Below, piece by piece: positions 1-15,618 of a stretch of DNA of 24,000 nucleotides. Origin of the DNA: Marinospirillum alkalitolerans (lineage in GTDB: Bacteria; Pseudomonadota; Gammaproteobacteria; Pseudomonadales; Halomonadaceae). The DNA is taken from the NCBI RefSeq assembly GCF_045055655.1, contig NZ_JBANFI010000003.1:151350-175349 (forward strand), in the 5' to 3' direction. Made by a program: the position numbers and the translations under genes. The notes below the pieces were generated by a model. It saw only the letters and a list, made by a program, of their open reading frames with translations, ran no database searches and was not told the origin of the DNA. Numbering within the stretch: position 1 is the first letter of the stretch; each line of letters starts with the position of its first letter.

Positions 1-697
1 GCTGCATGACACCAAGATCGACACTGAATGGCGCTCAGATTGGAAATGGCAGCGCGTCGCGCCCCACCTGAGCGATCTGCGCGGACGCTTGATCCTTGAT
101 GTTGGCGGCGGCAGTGGCTATCACGCTTGGCGCATGGCAGGCGCAGGAGCAGCACTGACTCTCTGCATAGATCCTTCCCCCCGTTATTTTGCCCAGTTTG
201 AAGCCGTCAAAAAGCTACTTGGGCCGCAGCTTTGCGAGCAGGTTTACCATCTGCCGCTGGGCATCGAAGACGTCCCGGAACAGCTCGAAGCCTTTGACAG
301 CGTCTTCTCGATGGGCGTGCTCTATCATCGCCGCTCACCGATCGATCATTTATTGGATCTCAAAGCCTGCCTGCGCTCAGGAGGAGAGCTGGTACTGGAA
401 ACACTGGTGGTTGAAGGTGGTGCGCAGCAGGTGCTCCTGCCACAAGATCGCTATGCAGCGATGCGCAATGTCTGGTTCCTGCCCTCTGTCGCGGCCCTCA
501 GCCTCTGGTTAGAAAGAGCTGGCTTTGCTGATGTACGCTGCGTTGATCTGAACCGCACCACAACCGAAGAGCAACGCAGTACAGACTGGATGCGCTTTCA
601 ATCTCTGGCTGACTTTCTTGATCCAGAAGATCCCAGCCGCACGCGTGAAGGCTACCCAGCCCCACTCAGGGCCGTGATGATCGCCCGCAAACCCTAG
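1..697 (+). CDS. cmoB: tRNA U34 carboxymethyltransferase CmoB, 5'-truncated at the window edge
   Basis: The frame is open from nt 2 ([45 protein letters not shown]...) to TAG at 695-697. It carries SAM-methyltransferase motif I (DVGGGSGY) and the CmoB-typical blocks [11 protein letters not shown] and GVLYHRRSP. The TTG/M at 89 in the ORF track is internal. Confidence 0.85.
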
Positions 698-707
698 AGA
701 CTTCCGG

Positions 708-740
708 CCGCTGGCCTCACCAGCGGTCACCCCTCTTTTT
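708..740 (+). terminator. Possible intrinsic terminator after cmoB
   Basis: 7-bp GC-rich stem CCGCTGG (708-714) / CCAGCGG (720-726) with a 5-nt loop. The T-run (736-740) starts 9 nt after the stem, so the geometry is imperfect. A second hairpin follows: CTTCTG 741-746 / CAGAAG 752-757. Confidence 0.35.
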
Positions 741-984
741 CTTCTGCTCAACAGAAGTGCCAACCCAGCGTTTTCCCTGCAACTGGCGAGCTTCACTCTT
801 CGGTGATAAAATCCGACTGTTTCACTCAGGCTTCTATAGCCTTTCGATCTAAAGCAGAAGATATTTTTTTGCATAAGATTATAAAAACAAACCATTTAAC
901 CTCGGCTATAAAAAGCCCTAGCATAGCCATCCTCTGCTTTTTTTATCCTTTATTCCTATTTTCAGGCGCCTTGAGGTCAGTTCC

Positions 985-1773
985 ATGAGCAAGTTTTATG
1001 CAGAAGAAGTTACCCATGTGAGTCACTGGACAGACCGCCTGTTCAGCTTCAAAACCACCCGCAGTGATGGACTGAGATTCAAAAACGGCCAGTTTGTGAT
1101 GATTGGCCTTGAAGTCGAAGGCAAGCCGCTGATGCGTGCCTATAGCATTGCCAGCCCCAACTATGAAGAAGAGCTGGAGTTTTTCAGCATCAAGGTGCCA
1201 GATGGCCCCCTGACCTCGCGCCTGCAACATTTGCAGATCGGCGATTCTTTATTTGTCAGTAAAAAACCGACTGGCACACTGGTATTAGACGATTTAAAAC
1301 CCGGCAAGCATCTCTATCTCTTTAGCACCGGCACAGGCTTGGCACCTTTTTTAAGCGTCATCCAGGATCCAGACACCTATGAGCGCTTCGAAAAGGTCAT
1401 CCTGCTGCATGGCGTTCGCCATGAAAAAGATCTGGCCTACCGTGAGTTCATCACTGGCGACCTGCTTGAACACCCCTATCTCAGTGAACAGATTGCTCAG
1501 CAACTCATCTACTACCCCACTGTCACGCGCGAGCCTTTTGTTTATCAAGGTCGAGCACAGCAGGGCAGAATCACCGAGCGAATGGCCAGCGGCGATCTGG
1601 CACGCGATCTGGGTCTACCTGAACTCAATCCAGAGACAGACCGCGCGATGATCTGCGGCAGCCCGATGATGCTGCGCGATATTTCTGCTGCGCTGGATGC
1701 ACGTGGCTTTCAGATTTCACCACGCATGGGTGAGGCCGGTGATTATGTCATCGAGCGGGCTTTTGTTGATTAA
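985..1773 (+). CDS. fpr: Ferredoxin--NADP+ reductase (bacterial Fpr subclass)
   Basis: 262 aa. FAD-binding RAYSIAS and NADP-binding LFSTGTGLAPF motifs; length and end-to-end resemblance to Azotobacter/Pseudomonas Fpr. GAGG RBS about 9 nt upstream of the ATG. Confidence 0.9.
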   Translation: MSKFYAEEVTHVSHWTDRLFSFKTTRSDGLRFKNGQFVMIGLEVEGKPLMRAYSIASPNYEEELEFFSIKVPDGPLTSRLQHLQIGDSLFVSKKPTGTLVLDDLKPGKHLYLFSTGTGLAPFLSVIQDPDTYERFEKVILLHGVRHEKDLAYREFITGDLLEHPYLSEQIAQQLIYYPTVTREPFVYQGRAQQGRITERMASGDLARDLGLPELNPETDRAMICGSPMMLRDISAALDARGFQISPRMGEAGDYVIERAFVD

Positions 1774-1917
1774 TGCGCCAAGGTGATGCAGAGATCCGTC
1801 AGCCAAGCAGGCGCGGCGGATCTCTGGCTCCAGCTGCTTCAGCGTCTTGTAGCAGAACCCCTCTGCATCTTGATAAAATAGAACAATCAAACTAGCTAGA
1901 AACGATGAGGAACCACT

Positions 1918-2283
1918 ATGAAGCATTCCGCTCTCTGCCGTCCCTTGCAAGGCCTTTTTTTGACCTTGCTGCTGGCCCTGCTCTCCAGTCATGTCTTCGC
2001 ACAAGAAGCCCCACTCACTGAGCGCGAAGCCCTGCAAGCCCAAGTTCTGGCGGGTGTCTGCGCCAGCTGCCACGGCACTGAAGGCCGTTTAAGCGGTGTG
2101 ATCCCAGCCATTGCGCAGCGCCCAGCTTCTGTTTTAGAAAGCCAGCTGCTGGCCTTTAAGCGTGGCGAGACACCGCATACCACGGTAATGGAGCGCCTTG
2201 CGCGCGGCTATACCGATGAAGAGCTGGCCCTGTTGGCCCGCTACTTTGCTCAGCCTCAAGCCTATCGTCCTACGCAGCCTTAA
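1918..2283 (+). CDS. Monoheme c-type cytochrome with signal peptide; likely small subunit of flavocytochrome c sulfide dehydrogenase (FccA/SoxE-like)
   Basis: 121 aa with an N-terminal signal peptide (LLLALLSSHVFAQE) and a single CASCH heme-binding motif. Lies 22 nt upstream of the FCSD flavoprotein gene. GAGGA RBS. Confidence 0.75.
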   Translation: MKHSALCRPLQGLFLTLLLALLSSHVFAQEAPLTEREALQAQVLAGVCASCHGTEGRLSGVIPAIAQRPASVLESQLLAFKRGETPHTTVMERLARGYTDEELALLARYFAQPQAYRPTQP

Positions 2284-2305
2284 TCCGACTTTTCAGGAGA
2301 GTGTC

Positions 2306-3604
2306 ATGTCTCAGTTTTCTCGTCGTCAATTCTTAAAAGCCGGTGGTGCCGCAGGTCTACTTCCTCTGGTGGGTGGGTGTGCTGCTTTAGGTGCTCGTTC
2401 AGGCTCAGCCGGTCGGGTCGTGGTCATCGGTGGTGGCTTTGGTGGGGCCACAGCCGCCAAGTATCTGAAGCGCGGTAATCCACAAGTGGAGGTCACCTTG
2501 GTAGAACCCAAGCGTGTCTTCCACACCTGCCCTTTTTCAAATCTGGTGCTCGCTGGCGAGCGTTCGATGGACAGCATTGCGCACAACTATGATGAGCTGA
2601 AGCAGGTTTATGGCGTGCGCGTCATTCATGCAACAGCCACAGATGTCGATCCGGTTGCACAGCGAGTCGTGCTGTCGAATGGTCAGCGCTTAGACTATGA
2701 CCGTCTGCTGCTGTCACCTGGCATCTCGATGCGCTGGAACGAGATCGAAGGCTATGATGAAGCCGCGGCACAACTGGCTCCCCATGCTTGGCAAGCCGGC
2801 CCACAAACCGAGCTTTTGCGTCGTCAACTCGAAGCGATGGAAGATGGCGGCACCTTTGTCCTCAGCGTACCGGCAGACCCCTTCCGCTGCCCGCCCGGAC
2901 CCTATGAGCGTGCGAGCTTAATCGCGCATTACTTTAGCCAGCACAAGCCTCGCTCAAAGGTTCTGATCCTCGATGCCAAGGACAACTTCTCTAAGCAGGG
3001 CCTGTTTATGCAGGGCTGGCGTGAACTCTATGGTGATCGCATCGAATGGGTTGGCCGTGCTCAGGATGGCGAAGTCACCCGTGTGGATGCGACGCGCTTA
3101 GAAGTCGAAACCGAATTCGGCACGCGTCATCGCGCCAGCGTCCTGAATGTGGTGCCGCCACAAAAAGCAGGCTGGATTGCCGAACGCGCAGGCGTCACCG
3201 ATGCTTCTGGCTGGGTACCAGTGAAGGCCAATACCTTTGAATCTCAGCAGGTTGCCAATATCTATGTTGTTGGCGATGCCACTGTTGCCGCTCCAATGCC
3301 CAAATCTGGTTTTGCCGCCAATGCGCAAGGCAAGGTGGCCGCTGCCGCGATTCTGGCCTCACTGGGTGGCTTTGAGCCAGTTGATCCTTACTGGGCCAAC
3401 ACCTGCTATAGCCTGGTGGGTCCTGAGTATGGCATCACCGTTGCTGGTGTTTATCGTGCCGAAAACCAGCGCGTCATCAGTGTTCCCGGCTCAGGTGGTG
3501 TCAGCCCGATGGAGGCCAGTGCGCAGTTCCGCCGCAATGAGGCAGCCTATGCCGTTGGCTGGTATAATGCGATCAGCCAAGATACCTGGGGCACTCAGCT
3601 TTAA
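2306..3604 (+). CDS. fccB: Flavocytochrome c sulfide dehydrogenase flavoprotein subunit (FccB/SoxF-like), Tat-exported
   Basis: Start chosen at ATG 2306: GGAGAG RBS, and the product begins with a twin-arginine signal (MSQFSRRQFLKAGG). FAD dinucleotide fold VVVIGGGFGGATAAKY, a redox-cysteine region (FRCPPGPYERA) and VGDA near the C-terminus. The longer ORF-track start at 2198 would overlap the cytochrome gene. Confidence 0.85.
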   Translation: MSQFSRRQFLKAGGAAGLLPLVGGCAALGARSGSAGRVVVIGGGFGGATAAKYLKRGNPQVEVTLVEPKRVFHTCPFSNLVLAGERSMDSIAHNYDELKQVYGVRVIHATATDVDPVAQRVVLSNGQRLDYDRLLLSPGISMRWNEIEGYDEAAAQLAPHAWQAGPQTELLRRQLEAMEDGGTFVLSVPADPFRCPPGPYERASLIAHYFSQHKPRSKVLILDAKDNFSKQGLFMQGWRELYGDRIEWVGRAQDGEVTRVDATRLEVETEFGTRHRASVLNVVPPQKAGWIAERAGVTDASGWVPVKANTFESQQVANIYVVGDATVAAPMPKSGFAANAQGKVAAAAILASLGGFEPVDPYWANTCYSLVGPEYGITVAGVYRAENQRVISVPGSGGVSPMEASAQFRRNEAAYAVGWYNAISQDTWGTQL

Positions 3605-3640
3605 TGCACCGGCGTATCTCAGCCTGTTGAGCGGATCAAG

Positions 3641-3672
3641 AGCAAGGGATGGGAAACCATCTCTTGCTTTTT
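3641..3672 (+). terminator. Rho-independent terminator after fccB
   Basis: 12-bp stem AGCAAGGGATGG (3641-3652) / CCATCTCTTGCT (3657-3668) with one G-U pair and a GAAA tetraloop, running directly into TTTTT (3668-3672). Confidence 0.75.
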
Positions 3673-3729
3673 GCTCTTCTGATCAGCAGAAGATCCCAGC
3701 CTTCACCTTTGCTGCAAGTGAGACGCCTC

Positions 3730-4824
3730 ATGTCTGATTGGTTTGCTGACCTCATTGATCAACCGCAAGTGCTGCTGCTTTTGGGCATGGCACTGATCGG
3801 CATCGCCTATGGCCTGATTGCACAATGGAGCCGCTTCTGCCTGCTTCGAGGTCTGCTGCATCGCTGGCAACATCAGGATAGCCGTAAGTTACAAGCCTTT
3901 GCCCTCGCTATGGCGACCAGTCTGCTGTTCACTCAGCTGGCACGGGTTCTTTTTGATCTCGATCTTGATCGCAGCGTCTTTTTTCCACGCGATTTCTCAC
4001 CGCTGCTTGTGTTGCTCGGTGGGGTGATCTTTGGCTATGGCATGACGCTGGCCAACGCCTGCGGTGCGCGCAGTGTGGTCCTGCTGGCAAGCGGCAATCT
4101 GCGCTCGGCCGTCACCCTGCTGGCTCTGGCACTGGGCGCGGGCATGACCCTGTCCGGCATCTTAGCCCCCCTGCGCCTGCTACTGGATGGCCTGCCTCTG
4201 CCACGCCTCAGTGGTGTCACACTACCTGAACTGTTCGGCCTTGCATCCAGCTGGGCGATGGTGGTGTTGATCAGCCTCTTACTTTTGGTATTGCTGGCCT
4301 TCTGCTTTTTAAGCTGTCCCCGCTGCCGCACCTCTGGGCGACGCTTAGCCCTAGATGGACGCGATGCCCTCGGCGGCTTGAGTCTTGGCCTGCTGATCGC
4401 GCTCAGCTGGTGGTGGACAGGCTGGGCAGCGCAAGACCCCTTTCAACCTCAGGCCCCCTCAGCGCTGAGCTTTATCGCTCCCATTGCACAAACCCAGCAG
4501 TACCTACTGCTGTCCACAGGCAGCCGCCTAAATCTGGGGGTGGTCTTGGTTCTGGGTGTCTTCTGCGGCGCGCTGGTGCGGGCGCTGCTGGCGAAGGAGT
4601 TTCGCTGGCAAGGCTTTGATTCCACCCGCCAAACCCATTTTTCTTTGCTCGGTGGATTCATGATGGGTGTAGGCGGGGTACTGGCTTTGGGCTGTAGCGT
4701 GGGGCAAGGGCTGAGTGGCTTTTCCACTCTGGCACTGACCAGCTTCTTTGCACTGGCCGGCATTCTACTGGGTACCCGCTGGGCCATGCGCAGACACCTT
4801 TCTTCTTCTCACCCTTCATCATAG
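3730..4824 (+). CDS. YeeE/YedE-family inner-membrane sulfur (thiosulfate) transport protein
   Basis: About 364 aa, polytopic and hydrophobic. Shows the duplicated YeeE/YedE halves, each with conserved cysteine blocks (WSRFCLLRG, LANACGARS, ALGCSVGQG). Start set at ATG 3730 because the ORF-track ATG at 3649 lies inside the upstream terminator hairpin. Confidence 0.8.
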   Translation: MSDWFADLIDQPQVLLLLGMALIGIAYGLIAQWSRFCLLRGLLHRWQHQDSRKLQAFALAMATSLLFTQLARVLFDLDLDRSVFFPRDFSPLLVLLGGVIFGYGMTLANACGARSVVLLASGNLRSAVTLLALALGAGMTLSGILAPLRLLLDGLPLPRLSGVTLPELFGLASSWAMVVLISLLLLVLLAFCFLSCPRCRTSGRRLALDGRDALGGLSLGLLIALSWWWTGWAAQDPFQPQAPSALSFIAPIAQTQQYLLLSTGSRLNLGVVLVLGVFCGALVRALLAKEFRWQGFDSTRQTHFSLLGGFMMGVGGVLALGCSVGQGLSGFSTLALTSFFALAGILLGTRWAMRRHLSSSHPSS

Positions 4825-4838
4825 ATAGGATGTTGATC

Positions 4839-5612
4839 ATGCGATTGAATCTGCAACACTGGAGTCTTCTCAGCCTGCTTCTGCTGCTGATCTCTACCTC
4901 GGCAGCAGCAGCAACGCGCTTTGCCCCCGTCGAAGCCCTGCTCGAAGGCGCTACGCCTCAAACACAAGGGCTGACACTTGAACTCCCCTTAGTCGCAGAT
5001 AATGGGGCCTCAGTTGATCTGAGCCTCCGCTTTGATGCAGCCTTGGCGGAGGGAGATCAATTAGAATTCATCACCCTTTTTGCCACAGAGAATCCACGCG
5101 CAGATATCCTGCGGGCCAGTTTTTTGGATGCACGGGTTGAACCTCAGCTGTCCACACGGATACGCCTGAACCAAAGCCAAACCGTGATTGCCGTCGCGCG
5201 TAGCCAACAAGGCCAATTCTGGATCGCAGAACAGCAGGTACGAGTGACCGTCAGCGGCTGTTTGATCGGCGGCGATGAAACCCAGATCACCAGTATGCAG
5301 CAACCACGCATCGCGCTGCCGCGTCGTCTGCAAGCAGGCCGCAGCATCGATATCCGCACCCTGATCAACCACCCCATGGAAACAGGGCTCACTCAGGTAA
5401 TCGGCGAACCGCTACGCGCACAAAACCTGATTGAATCCTTCACCCTTGAGCTCGATCAGCAGCCAGCCTTGCATCTGGAGTTACACACAGGCGTCGCGGC
5501 CAATCCCTATTTCCGTTTTGGTCTGATCCTGCCAGCCAGTACGCAAGCTAGCTTTATCTGGCAGGATCAACAGGGCGAAATACTGCGTGAAGAACGCCAG
5601 CTGCAACTCTGA
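4839..5612 (+). CDS. Fused SoxY-SoxZ sulfur carrier protein (periplasmic, Sec signal)
   Basis: The N-terminal half matches SoxY blocks (LELPLVADNGASV, ENPRADI, LSTRIRLNQSQTVIAVA, VRVTVSGC). The C-terminal half matches SoxZ blocks (IDIRTLINHPMETG, AANPYFRFG). Signal peptide LLSLLLLLISTSAAAA. ATG 4839 is preferred (AGGA 8 nt upstream); ATG 4830 is an alternative start. Confidence 0.75.
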   Translation: MRLNLQHWSLLSLLLLLISTSAAAATRFAPVEALLEGATPQTQGLTLELPLVADNGASVDLSLRFDAALAEGDQLEFITLFATENPRADILRASFLDARVEPQLSTRIRLNQSQTVIAVARSQQGQFWIAEQQVRVTVSGCLIGGDETQITSMQQPRIALPRRLQAGRSIDIRTLINHPMETGLTQVIGEPLRAQNLIESFTLELDQQPALHLELHTGVAANPYFRFGLILPASTQASFIWQDQQGEILREERQLQL

Positions 5613-5735
5613 GCCGCGCATGTTTCAGTTAGGAGCAGATAACCAAACGCTCTAAGAAATAGCTTTGTTATAACTCGATCTCGATTTAAGCTGTCCCCTA
5701 TTCTTGAATAGGTCTACTTTTATCGGGGTCGAACC

Positions 5736-6773
5736 ATGCTAAAAACACACGCTCCACAGTCTTCTGCGCCATCACCTTTACAGCGCGTTAAAACCTTGAG
5801 TCTGGCTCTTCTGTTGGCCGGTACAGCCAGTGTGGCTCAAGCCTCTAGCCTGCTCAATTCTTCTTATGATGTTGCGCGTGAGCTGTTTGCCGATTACAAC
5901 GTCCTGTTCGCCGAGCACTGGCAAAACACCACAGGTGAAGCGATCGAAATCCGCCAGTCTCATGGTGGCTCTTCACGCCAGGCACAGGCCATTATTCAAG
6001 GTCTCAGAGCCGATGTGGTGACTTATAACCAGGTCACGGATATCGATATTCTGCATCAGCGCGGCAATCTCCTACCTGCCAACTGGCGTGAACTGCTGCC
6101 CAATGACAGCTCGCCTTACTACTCCACCATGGCCTTTTTAGTGCGTGCCGATAACCCACGCAATATTCAAGACTGGGATGATCTGGCCCGCAGCGATGTC
6201 AGCAGCGTCCTGCCAAACCCCAAAACCTCAGGCAATGGCCGCTACACCTATTTGGCCGCTCTCGGCTTTGCGCAGCAAACCTTTGGCGAGGATCAAGCAG
6301 CGATAGATACTTTTATGCGCGGCTGGCTGAATCGTGTTGCCGTGTTTGATACAGGCGGGCGCGGTGCCACCAATACCTTTGTTGAGCGCAATATCGGTGA
6401 TGTGTTGATCACCTTTGAATCCGAAATCCTCGGTATTATTGAAGCCTTCCCAGAGCAGCAGTTTGAAATTGTGGTGCCTTCGATTAGCTTTCGCGCCGAG
6501 TTTCCTGTCGCCGTTGTAGAGCGCCACGCACAGCGCAATGGCAATCTAGAACGCGCACGCGCTTATCTTGAGCACCTTTATAGCGAGGAAGCCCAGCAGC
6601 TTTTAGCGCGCTTTAACCTGCGTGTGCATCATCCTGAAGTCGCCGCCGCTCACCAAGATCGCTTCCAAGCCTTGCAGCTGCTGGGTATTGAAGACATCGC
6701 CGGTAGCTGGGAAGCCGCCATGCAGCACCACTTTGCCAATGGTGGCCAGCTGGATCAGTATCAGCGCCGCTAG
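5736..6773 (+). CDS. Sulfate/thiosulfate ABC transporter periplasmic substrate-binding protein (Sbp/CysP)
   Basis: 345 aa with a signal peptide. Strong block similarity to E. coli Sbp (LLNSSYDVARELF, QSHGGSSRQA, NPKTSGNGRY, FDTGGRGATNTFVERNIGDVLI, HFANGGQLDQ). First gene upstream of cysTWA. Confidence 0.9.
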   Translation: MLKTHAPQSSAPSPLQRVKTLSLALLLAGTASVAQASSLLNSSYDVARELFADYNVLFAEHWQNTTGEAIEIRQSHGGSSRQAQAIIQGLRADVVTYNQVTDIDILHQRGNLLPANWRELLPNDSSPYYSTMAFLVRADNPRNIQDWDDLARSDVSSVLPNPKTSGNGRYTYLAALGFAQQTFGEDQAAIDTFMRGWLNRVAVFDTGGRGATNTFVERNIGDVLITFESEILGIIEAFPEQQFEIVVPSISFRAEFPVAVVERHAQRNGNLERARAYLEHLYSEEAQQLLARFNLRVHHPEVAAAHQDRFQALQLLGIEDIAGSWEAAMQHHFANGGQLDQYQRR

Positions 6774-6784
6774 GACCCCCCTCC

Positions 6785-7639
6785 ATGCCTACCTTTTTGC
6801 ACAAGCATCTTCGCGTTCAGGGCAAGCAAGTCTTGCCCGGTTTCACCCTCAGCCTGGGGGTGTCACTGCTTTTTATCAGCCTGATTCTTCTGTTGCCGAT
6901 CACGGGTCTGATCGTACAAACCAGTAGCATGAGCTGGCAGGAATACTGGCAGGTGATTTCTGATCCTCGCGTTGTCGCCTCTTATCGCGTCACTTTTTTG
7001 ATGGCGCTCGGAGCGTCACTGATCAACGGGGTGCTGGGATTGCTGCTGGCCTGGGTCTTGGTGCGCTATCACTTTTTTGGCAAGCGCCTGATTGATGCGA
7101 TGATCGACCTGCCCTTTGCGCTTCCTACGGCGATTGCAGGCCTGACGCTGGTCACCTTGTTTGCAGAAAATGGCTGGTATGGCCAGCTGCTGTCTCAAGT
7201 CGGCATTCAGGTCGCCTATGCACCAGCCGGCATACTGGTGGCGATGCTGTTCACCAGCCTGCCGTTTGTTGTTCGCAGTGTGCAGCCTGTTCTTGAAGAT
7301 TTGGCACAAGAGGATGAAGAAGCGGCGCTCAGTTTAGGCGCGTCAGATTTGACTGTCTTTCGACGGGTGCTCTTTCCAGCACTCTGGCCAGCGCTGTTGA
7401 TGGGGGTGAGCCTGTCACTGATCCGCAGCCTGGGTGAGTTTGGTGCGATCATCTTTATTGCCGGCAATATGCCCTATCTGACCGAAGTAACCAGCTTGAT
7501 GATTTTTATTCGTCTCCAAGAGTTTGATTATGCGGCAGCCAGCGCCATCGCCTCGGTGATTTTATTGACGTCACTCACGGCACTGCTGCTGATCAATATC
7601 TGGCAAACCCGCTACTTAAAGCGTATTCAGGGGCGTTAA
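6785..7639 (+). CDS. cysT: Sulfate ABC transporter permease CysT
   Basis: 284 aa. N-terminus VLPGFTLSLGVSLLFISLILLLP resembles E. coli CysT. EAA loop [12 protein letters not shown]. Operon position. Confidence 0.9.
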   Translation: MPTFLHKHLRVQGKQVLPGFTLSLGVSLLFISLILLLPITGLIVQTSSMSWQEYWQVISDPRVVASYRVTFLMALGASLINGVLGLLLAWVLVRYHFFGKRLIDAMIDLPFALPTAIAGLTLVTLFAENGWYGQLLSQVGIQVAYAPAGILVAMLFTSLPFVVRSVQPVLEDLAQEDEEAALSLGASDLTVFRRVLFPALWPALLMGVSLSLIRSLGEFGAIIFIAGNMPYLTEVTSLMIFIRLQEFDYAAASAIASVILLTSLTALLLINIWQTRYLKRIQGR

Positions 7640-7640
7640 T

Positions 7641-8537
7641 ATGGATTCCTCCACTCTCAGCCCACCCAGTGCAAGCAGCGTGAAGCCGCAGAAAAAAACC
7701 AGCAAGGCGCAAGGCCAGCGCGTGGGTGATCAGCCCTGGCTGCGTCGCTTGCTGATTGGCCTGGTCTTGCTGGCTGTTTTTTTACTGCTGGTGATGCCAC
7801 TGATTGCGATTTTTGTGCAGGCATTCAGTGCGGGCTGGTCCGGTTTTTGGACGAACCTCACCGATCACTACACCCTACACGCCATCGGACTGACTCTACT
7901 GGTCGCCGCCCTGACGGTACCGATCAATCTAGTCTTTGGTGTCCTGCTGGCTTGGCTGGTAACCCGCTTTGATTTTATCGGGCGCAAGCTGCTGATGACG
8001 CTGATTGATATTCCCTTTGCCGTCTCGCCGGTGGTCGCTGGTTTGATCTATCTGCTGCTCTACGGCAGTCAAGGCTGGCTCGGTGGCTGGTTGATGGACC
8101 ATGACCTACAAATCATGTTCGCCTGGCCGGGCCTGGTGCTGGTCACGGTGTTTATCACCTGCCCTTATGTGGCACGTGAGCTGATTCCGCTGATGCAGCA
8201 ACAGGGTTCAAGCGAAGAAGAAGCGGCGCTGAGCCTTGGTGCCAGTGGCTGGCAGATGTTTCGCCGAGTCACGCTGCCCAATATCCAATGGGCCTTGTTA
8301 TATGGCGTCATTTTAACCAATGCCCGTGCGGTGGGAGAATTTGGCTCGGTCTCGGTGGTATCAGGCAGTATTCGCGGTGAGACCAACACCCTACCCCTGC
8401 ATGTTGAGCTGTTGTACCAGGATTATAATCTCGTCGGTGCCTTTACCAGCGCCGCCCTGCTCGCCTGCCTCGCGCTGATCACGCTTGCCGCGAAGGCTTG
8501 GCTGGAGCAACGTCAAATGAAAGAGGTCGAGTCATGA
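7641..8537 (+). CDS. cysW: Sulfate ABC transporter permease CysW
   Basis: 298 aa polytopic protein with EAA loop [17 protein letters not shown]. Starts 1 nt after the cysT stop. The 4-nt ATGA overlap with cysA indicates translational coupling. Confidence 0.9.
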
Positions 8538-9667
8538 GCATTCGGATTCAACAAGTCAGTAAATCCTTTGGATCTTTCCAAGCCCTGCATCCACTGAATC
8601 TGGATATCCAGGATGGCGAAATGGTCGGACTGCTCGGTCCTTCTGGCTCAGGCAAAACCACGCTGCTGCGCATGATCGCCGGTTTAGAAAGCTGCGATAC
8701 AGGGAAAATTTTCTTTCAGGATCAAGAAGTCACCCGCCAGCATGTGCGCGACCGCCGCGTTGGCTTTGTGTTTCAGCACTATGCCCTGTTCAAGCATATG
8801 ACCGTGGCCGAGAATATTGCCTTTGGTCTGGATGTGCTGCCCAAATCCCAGCGGCCACCACAGCAGGAGATTCAGCGTCGCGTCAGTGAGCTGTTGGAGC
8901 GCATTCAGCTCCCCCATCTGGCCCAACGCTACCCCACTCAGCTCTCTGGTGGTCAGAAGCAGCGTGTGGCGCTGGCTCGGGCGCTGGCCATGCAGCCACG
9001 CGTGCTGCTGCTCGATGAGCCCTTTGGCGCTTTGGATGCGAAGGTGCGTAAAGAGCTGCGCCGCTGGCTGCGTGAACTCCATGACGAGCTGGGTTTTACC
9101 AGTGTTTTTGTCACCCATGATCAGGAAGAAGCGCTCGAAGTCTCCGATCGTGTAGTGGTGATGAGCCAAGGACGCATCGAGCAGCAGGCTACGCCGCAGG
9201 AACTCTATCATCAGCCAGCCTCACGCTTTGTGTATGACTTTTTAGGTCAGGTCAATATCTTCTCTGGGCAGGTGCAAGGCAAGAAGATGTCTCAGGGCGA
9301 AGCCTGGATCGAACTGCCTCACCCTCTCAAAGCTGAGCAAGGTGAAGTCTTTCTGCGCTCGCATGAGCTGGCCCTCAGCCGCGAGCCAGTGCAAAAGGCC
9401 CATCTGCCCATGCAGATCAATGCCATCAACCTGATCGGTGCCGAAGTCCGCCTTGAACTGCTACCGCAAGGCTGGTCCAGCGCCGAACCCTGGGAAGTGG
9501 CCATCAGCCATCAGGACTTTAATAGCTGGCAGCCACAAAGGGGTGATCGCTGCTTCCTGCGTCCTCTGGCGGGCCAGTTTTTTGCCGCTGCAGAGGCCAG
9601 CGTAACGCCAGCAGGACCTGAGCCGCTGAACTGGTCATCTTCCACAAGAATTTCACTAGCGAGTTAA
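8534..9667 (+). CDS. cysA: Sulfate/thiosulfate import ATP-binding protein CysA
   Basis: Start at ATG 8534 ([12 protein letters not shown]). Walker [13 protein letters not shown] signature LSGGQKQR, Walker B LLLDEPF, H-loop VTHD, and a C-terminal TOBE-like regulatory domain. Confidence 0.9.
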
Positions 9668-9714
9668 CAGGGGATGCGTTAGATTGCCCACTCAGTCTCA
9701 CTTTCTTGAGGATA

Positions 9715-10044
9715 GGCTCAGCGCGTCAACTACCCCAGCCTGAAGGCAGGAGTTTGTGAAAGCAAGCTAGGTTGACCAGGGAAAGCGGCAACCAATCCGC
9801 TACGTTAGCAATAGGTCGTGAAGACCCACCAGCGAATGCTTCCTCAGTTCGCTGCTCTGGAAGAACAGGATCATGCTGGCGCAAGGTAAAACGCCGAAGG
9901 TTCTGTTCGCCACTTCTTTTAAGAAGTGGGAGCCGATTGCTGACTTTCCCGAGGGGAGACAGGGCGTAAGCCCTGCGTCACTAGAACCCGTAAGGGCTGA
10001 ATTTAAAGTTTGAAGGCTTGAAAGTTGAATAGCGGAGAAACAGC
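9715..10044 (+). ncRNA. Candidate IscB omegaRNA (HEARO-type scaffold); the 5' boundary and guide are not resolved
   Basis: 377-nt gap with no credible ORF, directly upstream of and co-oriented with iscB. Densely packed stem-loops: 9784-9801, 9814-9826, 9830-9854, 9863-9908 (enclosing 9878-9895), 9910-9929, 9945-9959, 9961-9974 (GTAA loop), 9987-9996 (GTAA loop). The blocks GACCAGGGAAAGCGGCAACCAATCCGCTAC and TTTCCCGAGGGGAGACAGGGCGTAAGCCCTGCG resemble, from memory, conserved parts of published IscB omegaRNAs. Confidence 0.7.
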
Positions 10045-11400
10045 ATGGCTGTTTTTGTACTGGACAAGCGTAAAACACCACTGATGCCCTGCTCTGAAAA
10101 ACGAGCACGGCAGCTATTAGTGCGTGGGCGTGCAGTGGTACACAAAGTGCGCCCCTTCACGATTCGCTTGAAAGATCGACTGGCCGCTGACTCCACTTTT
10201 CAGCCACTACAGACCAAGATTGATCCAGGCAGCAAAATCACGGGCTTAGCGGTAGTGCGCGAAGATGAACAGCAGCCCGAAAGACAGGTCGTGCTCTGCT
10301 TGTTTGAGCTGATTCATCGTGGATTTCAAATCAAGCAAGCCTTAGAGCAGCGTCGTGCTTTTCGCCGCCGCCGTAGAAATCAGCTCCGCTACCGTGCTGC
10401 GCGTTTTGATAATCGCACCAAGCCCAAAGGTTGGCTGGCTCCAAGCTTACAGCATCGGGTGGATACGACAGTAGATTGGGTGCAGCGGATCATAAAATTA
10501 ACCCCGATCACCAGCATTCAGCAAGAGCTGGTGCGCTTTGATACGCAGAGGCTCGATAATCCCGAGATCAGCGGCGTGGAGTATCAGCAAGGCACTTTGC
10601 TGGGCTATGAAGTGCGCGAGTATCTTTTGGAAAAGTGGGGCCGTGCATGTGCTTACTGCGGCACCCAAGACGTGCCACTCCAGATTGAGCATATTCACCC
10701 GAAAAGCCAAGGTGGATCAAATCGCATCAGTAATTTGACGCTGGCCTGCCACCAGTGCAATCAAGCCAAGAATAATCAGCCGATTGCAGTCTTTTTTGAG
10801 CAGGACAAAGGCTTAAAGCGCCGCTTGAAGAAACAGGGTCTCTCGGCTGAAAAGCAGCTGGGCCGTGTACTGAAGCAATGTAAAAAGCCACTGAAAGATG
10901 CAGCTGCGGTGAATGCGACTCGCTGGGCATTGTTGAATGCACTCAAGCAAATAGATCTACCTGTTTTAACAGGCACTGGCGGCCAAACAAAATTCAATCG
11001 CCAGCGCCTTGGTATACCAAAAACTCACGCGCTGGATGCGGTTTGCGTAGGCCAGATTGAACAGATTGAAGGCTGGCAGCGACCCACCTTAACGATCAAG
11101 GCATCAGGAAGGGGCTGCTATCAGCGCACTCGCTTAGATCGTTTTGGCTTCCCTCGCGGTTACTTGATGCGCCAGAAAAGCGTGCAAGGTTTTCAAACGG
11201 GTGATTTGGTGAAGGCCGAGGTACCATCAGGCAAGAAGGCGGGTATTCACACGGGTCGTGTCGCTATCAGAAAAACAGGCAGTTTTAATATCCAGCTTCC
11301 TGATCAGATTATTCAGGGCATCAGCTGGAAATATTGCCGAATGCTTCAACGTGGTGATGGCTATGGCTACCACCAAACTTCAACAGTTCTAAGAACATAA
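10045..11400 (+). CDS. iscB: IscB: RNA-guided DNA endonuclease of the IS200/IS605 (ISC) family, the Cas9-ancestor type (PLMP + split RuvC + bridge helix + HNH + C-terminal TAM-interaction-like domain)
   Basis: 451 aa. PLMP motif at residues 12-15. RuvC-I IDPGSKITGLAVV (D60). Arg-rich bridge helix QRRAFRRRRRNQLRYRAARFDNR...GWLAPSL. RuvC-II QQELVRFD (E161). HNH with zinc knuckles CAYCG...IEHIHP...SNL...CHQCN (C202/C205, H216, N230, C235/C238). RuvC-III THALDA (H328, D331). C-terminal GFQTGDLV...GRVAIRKTGSFNI barrel. GGAG RBS 7 nt upstream. Confidence 0.9.
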   Translation: MAVFVLDKRKTPLMPCSEKRARQLLVRGRAVVHKVRPFTIRLKDRLAADSTFQPLQTKIDPGSKITGLAVVREDEQQPERQVVLCLFELIHRGFQIKQALEQRRAFRRRRRNQLRYRAARFDNRTKPKGWLAPSLQHRVDTTVDWVQRIIKLTPITSIQQELVRFDTQRLDNPEISGVEYQQGTLLGYEVREYLLEKWGRACAYCGTQDVPLQIEHIHPKSQGGSNRISNLTLACHQCNQAKNNQPIAVFFEQDKGLKRRLKKQGLSAEKQLGRVLKQCKKPLKDAAAVNATRWALLNALKQIDLPVLTGTGGQTKFNRQRLGIPKTHALDAVCVGQIEQIEGWQRPTLTIKASGRGCYQRTRLDRFGFPRGYLMRQKSVQGFQTGDLVKAEVPSGKKAGIHTGRVAIRKTGSFNIQLPDQIIQGISWKYCRMLQRGDGYGYHQTSTVLRT

Positions 11401-11419
11401 AGGAGAAGCGAGAACAGGT

Positions 11420-11453
11420 AAAACGAGACCTCTATCAAGGTTACGTTTTCCAC
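11420..11453 (+). terminator. Hairpin + T-run downstream of iscB (terminator and/or subterminal transposon-end hairpin)
   Basis: Imperfect 12-bp stem AAAACGAGACCT (11420-11431) / AGGTTACGTTTT (11438-11449), 10 of 12 paired, with loop CTATCA. The 3' arm ends in TTTT. Located 20 nt after the iscB stop. Confidence 0.4.
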
Positions 11454-11485
11454 TCTGAGCTAAAGCACGGAGTTTCTCGCGTAAA

Positions 11486-13750
11486 ATGATGAAATTTCGT
11501 TTCCCCGTCATCGTGGTCGATGAAGATTTTCGTTCAGAAAATATTTCTGGTTCCGGTATTCGTGATCTCGCCGAAGCCATAGGTAAAGAAGGCATGGAGG
11601 TCGTGGGCTACACCAGCTATGGTGATCTCACGGCCTTTGCGCAGCAGGCCAGCCGCGCGTCCTGTTTTATTGTCTCCATTGATGACGAGGAATTTTCCGA
11701 TGAGGAAGAGGGTGTCGATCGTGCTTTAGAGCAGATTGGCAGCTTTATTCGTGAAGTGCGCAAGCGCAATCATGATATCCCTATCTTTCTGTACGGCGAA
11801 ACGCGCACCTCGCGCCATATTCCGAATGCCATCCTGCGTGAACTGCATGGTTTTATCCATATGTTTGAGGATACGCCTGAGTTTGTGGCACGGCATATTA
11901 TTCGTGAAGCCAAAAAATACCTTGATGCGCTGGCACCGCCCTTTTTTACTGCGCTGATGGACTATGCCAGCGACTCCTCCTACTCCTGGCACTGCCCAGG
12001 ACATTCAGGGGGGGTGGCCTTTCTAAAAAGCCCCGTCGGGCAGATGTTCCACCAGTTCTTTGGTGAGAATATGCTGCGTGCTGATGTCTGTAACGCCGTC
12101 GATGAACTGGGCCAGCTGCTTGATCACACCGGCCCAGTTGCCGACAGTGAGCATAATGCGGCGCGGATTTTTGGTTGTGATCACCTGTTCTTTGTCACCA
12201 ATGGCACCTCGACTTCAAACAAGGTGGTCTGGCACTCCACTGTCGCCCCTGGAGACGTGGTGGTGGTTGATCGCAACTGCCATAAATCGATTCTGCACTC
12301 CATCATCATGACGGGGGCGATTCCTGTCTTTTTGATGCCCACACGCAACCACTACGGCATTATTGGCCCCATCCCGAAGAGTGAATTTGATCCGGCCACG
12401 ATACGTGCCAAGATCGAAGCCAATCCCTTCGCACGCCATGCCGTCAATAAGGACAAGCCACGGATTCTGACCATCACCCAATCTACCTATGATGGTATTC
12501 TCTACAATGTGGAAGAGATCAAAGCCCAGCTGGGTCAGACCATCGATACGCTGCATTTTGATGAAGCCTGGCTGCCTCACGCTGCTTTTCATCCCTTCTA
12601 CAAGGATATGCATGCCATCGGTGCCGATCGTCCGCGTTCGGAAGAAACACTGGTCTTTGCGACCCAATCGACCCACAAGCTGCTGGCGGGTCTTTCTCAA
12701 GCGTCACAAATTCTGGTCCAAGATAGCCAAACCCGTCAGCTGGATCGCCATCGCTTCAATGAATCCTATCTGATGCACTCCTCCACCAGCCCCCAGTACG
12801 CGATTATTGCTTCCTGCGATGTGGCAGCAGCGATGATGGAAGAACCCGGTGGGCAAGCCCTGGTCGAAGAATCCATTCATGAAGCCATCGACTTCCGCCG
12901 CGCGATGCGCAAGGTCGATGCTGAATTCGGTGATGATGACTGGTGGTTTACTGTCTGGGGTCCAGAAGAACTCGCGGAAGAAGGCATAGGTGATCGAGAT
13001 GCCTGGGTGATTCATTCCGGAGATACCTGGCATGGTTTTGGGGACATCAAAACCGGCTTTAATATGCTCGATCCCATTAAAGCCACCATCATCACCCCCG
13101 GATTGGATGTCGATGGTAACTTTGATGCTCAGGGTATTCCTGCGGCGATTGTCAGCAAGTATCTGGCAGAGCACGGCATTATCATCGAAAAAACCGGCCT
13201 CTACTCCTTCTTCATCATGTTTACCATTGGCATTACCAAAGGCCGCTGGAATTCAATGGTGACTGAGCTCCAGCAGTTCAAAGATGACTATGATCGCAAC
13301 CAGCCGATCTGGCGGGTGATGCCTGAATTTGCCGCGCGCCATCCTCAGTATGAGAAAACGGGGCTGCGCGATTTATGCCATGCGATCCATCAGGTGTACA
13401 AGGAGTACAACCTGGCCCGCATCACCACTGATATGTATCTGTCCAATATCGAGCCTGCGATGCTGCCTGCCGAAGCCTGGGCGAAGATGGCGCACCGTCA
13501 GGTTGAGCGTTGCCCAATCGATGCCCTTGAAGGCCGTGTTACGGCGATGCTGGTCACCCCCTACCCGCCCGGCATTCCACTGCTGATTCCCGGCGAGAAG
13601 TTTAATGCCACCATCGTGCGCTATCTGAAGTTTGTACGTGATTTCAACCAGCGCTTTCCTGGCTTTGAAACCGATGTACATGGTCTGGTGCATGAAGAAG
13701 TCAACGGCGTGGATGGCTACTATGTTGATGTGGTGCAAGAAGCGCCCTGA
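11486..13750 (+). CDS. Orn/Lys/Arg decarboxylase family, PLP-dependent, large wing-domain type (LdcA-like lysine decarboxylase)
   Basis: 754 aa. N-terminal response-regulator-like wing (FPVIVVDEDF), SYSWHCPGHSGGVAF, PLP-lysine motif FATQSTHKLLAG, and C-terminal PYPPGIPLLIPGE. From memory, end-to-end resemblance to Pseudomonas LdcA. Substrate (Lys versus Arg) is not resolvable by eye. Confidence 0.85.
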   Translation: MMKFRFPVIVVDEDFRSENISGSGIRDLAEAIGKEGMEVVGYTSYGDLTAFAQQASRASCFIVSIDDEEFSDEEEGVDRALEQIGSFIREVRKRNHDIPIFLYGETRTSRHIPNAILRELHGFIHMFEDTPEFVARHIIREAKKYLDALAPPFFTALMDYASDSSYSWHCPGHSGGVAFLKSPVGQMFHQFFGENMLRADVCNAVDELGQLLDHTGPVADSEHNAARIFGCDHLFFVTNGTSTSNKVVWHSTVAPGDVVVVDRNCHKSILHSIIMTGAIPVFLMPTRNHYGIIGPIPKSEFDPATIRAKIEANPFARHAVNKDKPRILTITQSTYDGILYNVEEIKAQLGQTIDTLHFDEAWLPHAAFHPFYKDMHAIGADRPRSEETLVFATQSTHKLLAGLSQASQILVQDSQTRQLDRHRFNESYLMHSSTSPQYAIIASCDVAAAMMEEPGGQALVEESIHEAIDFRRAMRKVDAEFGDDDWWFTVWGPEELAEEGIGDRDAWVIHSGDTWHGFGDIKTGFNMLDPIKATIITPGLDVDGNFDAQGIPAAIVSKYLAEHGIIIEKTGLYSFFIMFTIGITKGRWNSMVTELQQFKDDYDRNQPIWRVMPEFAARHPQYEKTGLRDLCHAIHQVYKEYNLARITTDMYLSNIEPAMLPAEAWAKMAHRQVERCPIDALEGRVTAMLVTPYPPGIPLLIPGEKFNATIVRYLKFVRDFNQRFPGFETDVHGLVHEEVNGVDGYYVDVVQEAP

Positions 13751-13780
13751 GCAGCCCCTCTCTGACTCTTAGCCACAAAA

Positions 13781-13804
13781 AAACCCTCGCAAGAGGGTTT
13801 TTTT
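13781..13804. terminator. Bidirectional intrinsic terminator between the convergent decarboxylase and deaD genes
   Basis: AAACCCTC (13781-13788) GCAA GAGGGTTT (13793-13800), flanked by an A-run upstream and a T-run downstream, so a hairpin followed by a U-tract forms on both strands. Confidence 0.8.
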
Positions 13805-13887
13805 ATGACCTATTTTAAGCCTGCTGGGTGGCGAGCTGAACTCCACACCCAGCGCTCAAGGGCAATGATGCCCTTGGCTGACGCCAT

Positions 13888-15618
13888 TTAGGCTGAAGCT
13901 GGGCGACGACGCAGTGGACGACGGCCAGCGTCATCTTCTGCAGCACGTGGCGCACTGCTGCCACCGGCTGAGCTGCTCAGGTTCATCGGTACACCACAGA
14001 TGCGTACGCGGGCCAGCGCCTGGAATACAGCCTTCGGCATGCCTTCTGGCAGATCGACGGTGCTGAAATCCTGTTGAATATCAATACGGCCAATGTTACG
14101 GCTAGAGATATTCGCTTCGTTGGCAATCGCTCCAACGATATTGGCTGGCTTGACACCATGCGAGCGGCCAATCGGCATACGGTAGCGCTTCATGCCTGCT
14201 TCTGGATCACGCGAACGTCCACGCGGGCCAGCAGCATCACGGCGACCACGGCCACCAGCATCATCTTCACGACGAGGACGATCACGCATCGGGCGCGGCT
14301 TCACTTCTTCAACCCACAAAGGCGTGTTGCCTTGGAACATCTTGGCCAAAGCGGCCGCAATGCGCAGCGGATCGGTATCGGTTTCGCTGTGGACTTCTTG
14401 CAGCAGCTTCTCGTACTGTTCGATATCACGAGCTTGCAAAGAGTGAATGATCTGCTCTTTAAAGCGCTCACTGCGCTTGGCATTGATCAGTTCCGCCTTT
14501 GGCAGCTCCATAGGCTCAATGCGCTGACCTGTACTGCGCTCAAGGTTGAACAGCAAACGCTTTTCGCGCTGAGTAACAAAAAGAATCGCCTGACCGCTCC
14601 GGCCCGCACGACCTGTCCGGCCAATACGGTGCACATAAGACTCGCTATCATGGGGCGGATCAAAGTTGATAACGTGGCTGATGCGTTCAACATCCAGACC
14701 ACGCGCGGCCACATCGGTCGCGACCAGAATATCCAACTGGCTCTTCTTTAACTTATCCACAGCCTGTTCGCGCTGCGCCTGTGCCATATCACCATGTAAA
14801 GCACTGGCACGGAAGCCACGGCTATTCAGGAAATCGGCCAGATCAGCACAGCTGGCTTTGGTACGGGTGAAGATGATGATGCCATCTGTGGCTTCAGCTT
14901 CAAGAATCCGCGTCAGGGCTTCAGGCTTCGGCAGACCGTTGACCATCCACACTCGCTGAGTGACGGTATCAGCGGTACGCGCTTTTGCCGCAATACGCAC
15001 TTCTTTAGGATCTTTGAGGTGACGCTGGGCAATGCGGCGGATCATCTCTGGCATGGTCGCCGAGAAGAGCACCACTTGACGCTCAGCTGGCGTCTGCTCA
15101 AGAATCCACTCCACATCATCAATAAAGCCCATACGCAGCATTTCGTCGGCTTCATCCAGCACCAGTGTTTTCAGCTGAGAAATATCCAGGCTGCCACGAC
15201 GCATATGGTCCATCACACGGCCAGGCGTACCGACTACGATCTGTGCGCCAGATTTCAGGGCACGCATCTGCTCGCGGTATTCTGCGCCACCGTAAAGGTT
15301 AGCCACCTTCACGCCTTTCATGTTCGCGCCATATTTTTCAACGGATTCGGCAACCTGCATCGCCAATTCACGCGTTGGTGCCAAAACTAAAACCTGAGGT
15401 GAACGTGCGTTCACATCTAGGCGGGCCAATAAAGGAAGAGAAAAGGCCGCTGTTTTGCCCGTCCCGGTTTGGGCCTGGCCTAATAAATCGTGTCCTTCCA
15501 GCAGCAGAGGAATCGTCTGTGCCTGGATAGGAGAAGGTTGGTTGTATTCAATAGCAGAAAGCAAAAAATCAGGAAGACCCAGCTCGTTAAAAGCGGGCAA
15601 ATTCGCGTCAGTAGACAT
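13888..15618 (-). CDS. deaD: ATP-dependent DEAD-box RNA helicase DeaD/CsdA
   Basis: Start taken at ATG 15618 (MSTDANLPAFNELGL). Q-motif PSPIQ, motif I AQTGTGKT, DEAD, SAT, HRIGRTGRAG. The Arg/Asp-rich linker and the C-terminal DbpA-type RNA-binding domain (GAIANEANISSRNIGRIDI) align well with E. coli DeaD. Confidence 0.9.
   Translation of the reverse strand: MSTDANLPAFNELGLPDFLLSAIEYNQPSPIQAQTIPLLLEGHDLLGQAQTGTGKTAAFSLPLLARLDVNARSPQVLVLAPTRELAMQVAESVEKYGANMKGVKVANLYGGAEYREQMRALKSGAQIVVGTPGRVMDHMRRGSLDISQLKTLVLDEADEMLRMGFIDDVEWILEQTPAERQVVLFSATMPEMIRRIAQRHLKDPKEVRIAAKARTADTVTQRVWMVNGLPKPEALTRILEAEATDGIIIFTRTKASCADLADFLNSRGFRASALHGDMAQAQREQAVDKLKKSQLDILVATDVAARGLDVERISHVINFDPPHDSESYVHRIGRTGRAGRSGQAILFVTQREKRLLFNLERSTGQRIEPMELPKAELINAKRSERFKEQIIHSLQARDIEQYEKLLQEVHSETDTDPLRIAAALAKMFQGNTPLWVEEVKPRPMRDRPRREDDAGGRGRRDAAGPRGRSRDPEAGMKRYRMPIGRSHGVKPANIVGAIANEANISSRNIGRIDIQQDFSTVDLPEGMPKAVFQALARVRICGVPMNLSSSAGGSSAPRAAEDDAGRRPLRRRPASA

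Follow-up and report, generated by a model that had tools for sequence, protein, structure and literature searches.

An omegaRNA (HEARO RNA) and its iscB gene in a small ISC/IS605-type transposon inserted before a decarboxylase start codon

AwaIscB has an ATGA TAM, and the original HEARO paper reportedly placed integration beside ATGA/GTGA. The 5′ spacer of the omegaRNA has proved reprogrammable in published work, which also identifies HEARO as the omegaRNA of IscB (among others, Meers et al., bioRxiv 10.1101/2023.03.14.532601). The same study reports that the HEARO-like region is bounded by RE, that tnpA lies near only ~1.5% of iscB genes, and that the TAM of GstIscB and that of its TnpA are both TTCAT 5′ of LE, which is ATGAA in the iscB orientation. 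The ISC2 elements of Halomonas and Marinobacter insert without duplication between the N and the ATGA of their target (Kapitonov et al. 2016, PMC4810608). Here, we compare with these systems a locus in a 24,000-nt window, by which we mean the whole stretch of DNA that was analysed. Comparative sequence analysis confirms that the structured stretch upstream of iscB in this window is a genuine, intact omegaRNA (HEARO RNA). It belongs to a small IscB transposon of a well-documented, known kind, and nothing in it will surprise a specialist. The element and its immediate flanks have the following parts.

9709-9724, + strand: putative 16-nt guide segment AGGATAGGCTCAGCGC, host DNA directly 5′ of the element boundary
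9725-9776, unstranded: transposon end at the omegaRNA 5′ side (RE in the IS200/IS605 convention), placed by the homology break in ~60 loci and by the empty site
9725 to ~9999, + strand: omegaRNA scaffold (HEARO RNA), placed by Rfam match and covariation
10000-10044, + strand: non-conserved spacer and iscB 5′ UTR, no conservation in columns 379-433 of alignment A1 (described below)
10045-11400, + strand: iscB, 451 aa, with Pfam RRXRR and HNH
11401-11488, unstranded: other transposon end (LE in the IS200/IS605 convention), placed by 68 loci and by the empty-site boundary between 11488 and 11489
11469-11488, unstranded: conserved LE terminal block GGAGTTTCTCGCGTAAAATG, followed by unrelated flank in 68 loci
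11489-11493, + strand: TAM and insertion target ATGAA, host DNA, placed by the empty site

In an Rfam scan of the whole window, HEARO (RF02033) matches 9725-9960 on the + strand at 109 bits (E 5.6e-22), and model positions 1-211 are all matched; no other Rfam family reaches its gathering threshold anywhere in the window. The preliminary description had called this region the omegaRNA cognate to iscB, and had named a HEARO covariance-model search and covariation at homologous loci as ways to check it. The identification is borne out by the RF02033 match, which exceeds the gathering score of 83 bits, and by the intact iscB downstream on the same strand; the check by covariation comes out the same way, as we describe below. 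The hairpins that it had read by eye are all found where it had placed them, and each is a covariation-supported helix (helices 6/7, 10, 11, 12, 13, 14/15 and 16). The stems and repeats read in this way, and the helices of the comparative model, are listed here.

9725-9731/9770-9776, + strand: scaffold P1, enclosing hairpins 9735-9750 and 9751-9768
9784-9801, 9826-9860 (with 9830-9854), 9864-9907 (with 9878-9895) and 9911-9928, + strand: internal hairpins of the scaffold
9961-9974 and 9986-9997, + strand: 3′ hairpins of the scaffold, beyond the Rfam model
9784-9788/9797-9801, + strand: hairpin AGCGG/CCGCT, read in the sequence
9830-9836/9848-9854, + strand: hairpin CAGCGAA/TTCGCTG, read in the sequence
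9863-9870/9901-9908, + strand: stem GAACAGGA/TTCTGTTC, 8 bp, one pair G.U
9878-9881/9892-9895, + strand: hairpin GGCG/CGCC, enclosed by the 9863-9870/9901-9908 stem
9910-9916/9923-9929, + strand: hairpin CCACTTC/GAAGTGG, read in the sequence
9961-9974, + strand: GTAA-loop hairpin AGGGC-GTAA-GCCCT, read in the sequence
9987-9996, + strand: GTAA-loop hairpin CCC-GTAA-GGG, read in the sequence
10005-10014 and 10021-10029, + strand: direct repeat copies AAAGTTTGAA and AAAGTTGAA, read in the sequence

Folding the window sequence by itself yields z scores against shuffles of -2.4 (+ strand) and -2.1 (- strand). Single-sequence folding is therefore weakly informative on both structure and strand, and the case rests on the comparative evidence of covariation and G.U asymmetry. 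A representative-genome scan supplied 80 loci, mostly from Gammaproteobacteria and Betaproteobacteria, whose encoded IscB proteins are 59-81% identical; alignment A1 contains 72 regions, each running from the scaffold start through the last base before the iscB ATG. Upstream DNA similarity starts at 9725 ± 1 in ~60 loci and stops near 9997-10007, while the flanks to the left of GTCAAC are unrelated between loci. In 71 related loci, as in the window, iscB lies downstream of the scaffold on the same strand. Applied to A1, RNAalifold returns 61 pairs, of which 47 show compensatory double changes. With the listed stems that RNAalifold had left out, the structure comprises 71 pairs, and 54 of these have changed on both sides across the 72 loci.

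Within this 71-pair structure, 94.3% of the cells from the 72 loci are paired, versus 77.0% after column shuffles and 27-45% with slid partners. The covariation score is 0.493 versus 0.175 for shuffles, and none of 500 shuffles attains any of the observed covariation measures. Two long-range helices are supported, 9779-9783/9946-9950 and 9804-9812/9936-9944. Across the related loci, G.U occupies 441 pair cells and A.C only 79, which assigns the constraint to RNA of the + strand. The window copy is a typical member: two of its 71 pairs are non-standard (the family median is three), and it matches the consensus at 112 of the 114 columns with at least 90% conservation, deviating at the other two. 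Some relatives carry insertions of their own, including a 24-nt hairpin in the second P1 hairpin of one locus (L054) and an extra GCGGTACGCCGCC hairpin within the 9864-9907 helix of several Halomonas/Vreelandella omegaRNAs (L002/L004/L005/L009-L011/L014/L015). The preliminary description had seen no plausible ORF in the region, a statement that needs rewording, since mechanical ORFs of 46-102 aa do overlap it, and that stands in substance, none being conserved. ORFs of 65 aa (+), 46 aa (+) and 102 aa (-) were considered as coding and rejected on the strength of non-triplet indels and paired-site substitutions in the alignment.

Conservation continues for 38 nt past the Rfam match and spans two more hairpins, the first of which (9961-9974) covaries strongly. 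RF02033 does not include downstream structural elements, as Meers et al. already noted (bioRxiv 10.1101/2023.03.14.532601), so that this 3′ extension is expected rather than new. In the terminal hairpin (9986-9997; A1 columns 365-376), the CCCGUAAGGG core is invariant across the 72 loci and the outer pairs covary; most other scaffold helices, unlike this core, covary freely. The invariance of the core points to a sequence-specific contact or to some additional role, such as one in the translation of iscB.

Beyond ~10000, the only conserved feature is the Shine-Dalgarno sequence GGAG at 10034-10037, 7 nt ahead of the iscB ATG. The window spacer has ~25-30 extra nucleotides, including the AAAGTT(T)GAA repeat, that are missing from the 71 other loci. 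Here, past the final omegaRNA hairpin and ahead of the Shine-Dalgarno sequence, the window has an imperfect tandem duplication, AAAGTTTGAAGGCTTG / AAAGTTGAATAGC. As the preliminary description had reported, the repeat is present at 10005-10029; the place in the structure that it had implied is lost, because 71 loci do without the repeat, and we rejected it as part of the omegaRNA on that ground. By this comparison, it is a local duplication in the spacer and lies outside the RNA family. Owing to the duplication, the window element is the longest of the 63 that were measured, at 1764 bp versus a median of 1702.

The protein partner also appears complete. Pfam assigns RRXRR (237 bits, residues 3-183) and HNH (residues 202-245) to the iscB product, and it matches the IscB chains in the PDB, TbaIscB at 4e-43 and OgeuIscB at 1.4e-25. 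Its motifs are PLMP (residue 12), RuvC-I D60, an arginine-rich helix (~103-120), RuvC-II E161, the HNH motif (C202xxC, H216, C235xxC) and RuvC-III H328/D331. At least 97% of 79 homologs share PLMP, D60, E161, the HNH zinc cysteines, H216, H328 and D331, and conservation of the C-terminal part suggests a TAM-interaction domain there. Judged by these motifs, the ORF is an intact, full-length IscB in which all catalytic motifs are kept. The closest IscB found is that of Nitrincola schmidtii (81% identical), and the elements of Halomonas/Vreelandella, with 67-72% IscB identity, are among the closest relatives. Elsewhere in the family, the iscB ORF extends to 698 aa in Acidithiobacillus sp. M4-SHS-6 (L064) and is cut to 32 aa, probably as a pseudogene, in Ca. 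Aalborgicola (L080). A compact IscB of 451 aa with a defined 5-nt TAM could be of use in editor screening.

An empty allele defines the limits of the element. Contig L081 (Logan assembly of SRR32897251), found by an exact look-up of the decarboxylase protein, carries cysA and, after 57 nt, the decarboxylase gene; iscB is absent. Its positions 1-4000 align to window positions 5725-9724 with 98.75% identity and its positions 4001-6507 to 11489-13995 with 98.76% identity, and the junction is collinear, with no base duplicated or lost. Consequently, the element is exactly 9725-11488 (1764 bp) and was inserted without duplicating its target site. The sequence of the empty allele is …CTTGAGGATAGGCTCAGCGC directly joined to ATGAAATTTCG…, so that at its junction the guide segment is followed by ATGAA, and L081 3985-4000 is identical to window 9709-9724. 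Because these 16 nt before the scaffold are the same in the empty allele and are followed there by ATGAA, we take 9709-9724 as the guide, with the length of 16 nt inferred from the literature, and ATGAA as the TAM. The preliminary description had expected the scaffold to start near 9725-9735 and the guide to lie within 9700-9730. Its lower limit for the scaffold turns out to be the start itself, where the Rfam match, the onset of homology and the empty-site boundary between 9724 and 9725 coincide, and the 16 flanking nucleotides with their TAM in the empty allele fall inside its range for the guide.

The ATG of the TAM is the start codon of an Orn/Lys/Arg decarboxylase gene (11489-13750), and the guide segment belongs to the 5′ UTR of that gene, including Shine-Dalgarno-like bases (GAGGA/AGG). 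Where the element is present, GTCAA comes after the guide match and the TAM is thereby destroyed; the element would consequently not target itself. The right end was located in 39 of 81 loci by a first regular expression and in 68 by a relaxed one, and the junction statistics leave out the 13 loci whose right end was not located. After GATG at the right junction, the next base is A in 65 of these 68 loci, and the base after that is A in 46. The empty site and the 68 loci together describe insertion beside a specific 4-5-nt motif without target-site duplication, as in the IS200/IS605 superfamily (ISC).

At its RE, the element begins with GTCAAC and has a subterminal hairpin at 9735-9750, and this terminus doubles as the first omegaRNA stems. 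The consensus of the RE hairpin, CCCCGCCCTGAAGGGCGGAG, is near-identical to a hairpin at the LE of related loci, where iscB is followed by this hairpin, by GTTTCTCGCGCAAA…(C)TG, by ATGA(A) and then by unrelated sequence. In the family consensus, the subterminal hairpins are thus near-identical at both ends; the window copy has the RE-side hairpin and a weak LE-side one. The latter (~11452-11473) is imperfect, with -5.3 kcal/mol as DNA, which is no better than shuffles. It is degenerate, CTCTGAGC…GCACGGAG, where the family consensus is CCCCGGCC…GGCCGGGG, and its recognition by TnpA may be impaired. There is no tnpA in the element or in the 24-kb window, and an exact look-up of the IscB protein returned no other record, giving no sign of further copies or of recent transposition. 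Given the absence of tnpA from the window, the weak LE hairpin and the lack of a second copy of the exact IscB, current mobility is uncertain.

We now turn to how such an element would work. At this locus we observe the RNA and protein families, the covarying structure and its strand, the element boundaries, insertion without target-site duplication, and the guide with its TAM in a natural empty allele; we conclude with high confidence that 9725-11488 is a non-autonomous ISC/IS605-family transposon that carries only the omegaRNA gene and iscB and would work as a guided homing system. Its transcription and processing, the 16-nt guide, RNP formation, cleavage and homing would then proceed as in published work on relatives. 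Read-through from the co-oriented cysPTWA operon, which ends 42 nt upstream of the guide, most likely makes the omegaRNA, and the read-through RNA would be trimmed afterwards. The first ~16 nt (9709-9724), which are host DNA outside the transposon end, would act as the guide, and the next ~275 nt (9725 to ~9999) would fold into the HEARO scaffold bound by IscB. The IscB-omegaRNA complex would recognise double-stranded DNA in which a guide match is followed by the TAM ATGAA, a combination predicted to exist only in the empty allele, whether excised or never occupied. The RuvC and HNH domains would cut beside the TAM, either at the empty donor joint or in a homologous allele that lacks the element, and recombination with the occupied copy would then restore the element.

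A scan of 9300-11700 revealed no sigma-70-like promoter upstream of the guide or between cysA and the scaffold, and terminator-like sites in the same interval were no more than the shuffle expectation; the scan lends no support to a promoter inside the element or in its flank. With the guide located beyond the element end and no promoter-like site separating cysA from the scaffold, transcription probably reads through, and read-through from a co-oriented operon is in keeping with the biased orientation described for iscB elements (Meers et al., bioRxiv 10.1101/2023.03.14.532601). As a natural test case the locus is clean: its occupied and empty alleles are ~98.8% identical, and the sequences of the putative guide and of the TAM are exactly known. 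RNA and protein both look intact, so a homing or cleavage experiment is easy to design.

The most serious objection to a working system accepts both identifications and holds that this copy is a stranded, silent relic, no longer excisable, with an idle guide RNA. The missing tnpA in the window would fit such a history, as would an LE-side hairpin that departs from the family consensus and does no better than shuffled sequence, an exact IscB protein recorded nowhere else, and an extra spacer insertion in the longest of the 63 measured elements. Against it stand a full-length IscB ORF with all catalytic motifs and an omegaRNA whose pairing is on a par with the family median and which deviates at only two of 114 conserved columns. 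The polymorphism between occupied and empty alleles at ~98.8% identity shows a recent gain or loss event, and TnpA could be encoded elsewhere in the genome, as it usually is for iscB elements (Meers et al., bioRxiv 10.1101/2023.03.14.532601). We regard a silent relic as unlikely.

Two other explanations would remove the guide RNA altogether. If the structure were only a cis-acting 5′ leader that governs iscB translation or mRNA stability, with no trans-acting guide, one would understand why it runs on into the iscB 5′ UTR without an intervening terminator, and why the last hairpin, CCCGUAAGGG, is almost invariant, does not covary, and lies 10-45 nt ahead of the Shine-Dalgarno sequence. Such a leader leaves unexplained that the scaffold starts at the transposon end and that flank plus TAM rebuild the empty site, and relatives in the same Rfam family are guide RNAs proven by experiment (including Meers et al., bioRxiv 10.1101/2023.03.14.532601); this explanation is very improbable, and a cis role may exist on top of the guide role. 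Alternatively, the conservation could reflect DNA-level end signals for the TnpA transposase, with no RNA at all. The first ~50 nt do include GTCAAC at the terminus and, subterminally, a hairpin matching the one at the other end, and such ends are expected of IS200/IS605 (Kapitonov et al. 2016, PMC4810608). Ends recognised by TnpA are short, however, whereas conservation at this locus extends over 275 nt and takes in long-range helices and 54 compensatory pairs, and the strand-specific 441:79 ratio of G.U to A.C fits RNA but neither duplex DNA nor DNA of either strand. A DNA-end role accounts only for 9725 to ~9776, where it coexists with the RNA role, and as a full explanation we give it next to no credence. 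We thus retain the guided homing element as our reading of 9725-11488.

The position of the element relative to host genes has a pattern of its own. In the window, its insertion point is the exact junction of the decarboxylase 5′ UTR and ATG. Among the 68 related loci with a located right end, the junction ATG begins an ORF of 80 aa or more in 50, compared with a baseline of 22% for GATGA elsewhere in the same flanks (binomial p 3.5e-19). Ten flank ORFs were tested, and each encodes a full-length housekeeping protein that aligns with its family profile from position ~1 onward (ArgS, Pth, RuvA, FabH, NadD, HisC, RsmE, MoeB, an SDR and a NarL-type response regulator). The left flank is enriched for Shine-Dalgarno-like motifs over its final 4-18 nt, inside the guides, at 37% versus 9%. 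Because the element sits before host start codons, the guides of this clade are built from host 5′ UTR and Shine-Dalgarno sequence. The iscB stop overlaps the host ATG in 26 of the 68 loci (L022, L025, L029, L039 and L048 are examples, at the right element end), 21 times as TGATG and five times as TGA inside ATGA, an arrangement classic for translational coupling that would link the translation of the host gene to iscB. The window has no such overlap, its iscB stop lying 88 nt upstream of the host ATG.

The published reports of ATGA/ATGAA targets (Meers et al., 10.1101/2023.03.14.532601; Kapitonov et al., PMC4810608) do not mention start codons. Tentatively, we raise the possibility, itself rather doubtful, that this IscB/ISC2 clade is specialised for a position exactly between ribosome-binding site and start codon in host genes, of which many are essential. 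The pattern could be a real adaptation, or it could come from simple purifying selection, with intragenic ATGA insertions being lost. If the placement is selected and not a by-product of the ATGA target, it would amount to a safe-harbour or addiction-like strategy in which imprecise loss damages the host gene. Start-codon placement in this clade bears on how such elements avoid harm to their hosts.

The same junction affects annotation. The last three bases of the element (11486-11488) are ATG and in frame with the host ATG at 11489, which leads ORF callers to add an extra N-terminal Met (MMKFRF…); the empty allele gives the native decarboxylase start as 11489 (MKFRF…), not 11486, and the annotated start belongs there. 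A suitable label for the whole region is omegaRNA (HEARO) plus iscB within a 1764-bp ISC/IS605-type element, which leaves no unexplained structured RNA. Upstream of the element, the window encodes a flavocytochrome c sulfide dehydrogenase flavoprotein with a TAT signal (2198-3604), a Sulf_transp protein (3649-4824), a fused SoxY-SoxZ protein (4830-5612) and a sulfate-type ABC transporter, cysPTWA (5736-9667), co-oriented with the element. This sulfur-metabolism neighbourhood (2198-9667) suggests, from gene content, that the host is a sulfur-oxidising gammaproteobacterium. The listed cysA ORF starts at a TTG at 8498, so that its first 40 nt (8498-8537) lie within the upstream permease gene; the cysA call on L081 is 377 aa long, equivalent to an ATG at window position 8534.

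Among described systems, the HEARO/IscB omegaRNAs of OgeuIscB, GstIscB and the MG35 HEARO nucleases are matched by the window RNA in its full-length model match, its location directly 5′ of iscB on the same strand, a 5′ end that is also the transposon end, a guide from flanking DNA, and a multi-helix scaffold with long-range helices. It differs in having a scaffold of ~275 nt, compared with a model of 211 positions, and in its inserted hairpin (9910-9929) and two further conserved hairpins 3′ of the model (9961-9974 and 9986-9997). The ISGst IscB element of Geobacillus stearothermophilus (Meers et al., 10.1101/2023.03.14.532601) has a distant host, among the Firmicutes, and activity demonstrated by experiment, whereas our locus is known from its sequence; the two are alike in their TAM (TTCAT/ATGAA), in an RE-bounded omegaRNA upstream of iscB and in their co-orientation with the upstream host gene, and the homing model applies directly. 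The non-autonomous ISC2 transposons of Proteobacteria, such as ISC2-1_HM of Halomonas meridiana and ISC2-1_MS of Marinobacter (PMC4810608), occupy other hosts and insertion sites, and we liken them to the window element by their published features. Like it, they are ~1.7 kb long and encode only IscB, and they share with it a 5′ terminus that starts GT(CA) and insertion between N and ATGA without target-site duplication; they also have imperfect subterminal hairpins, of which the window copy shows the RE-side one and a weak LE-side one.
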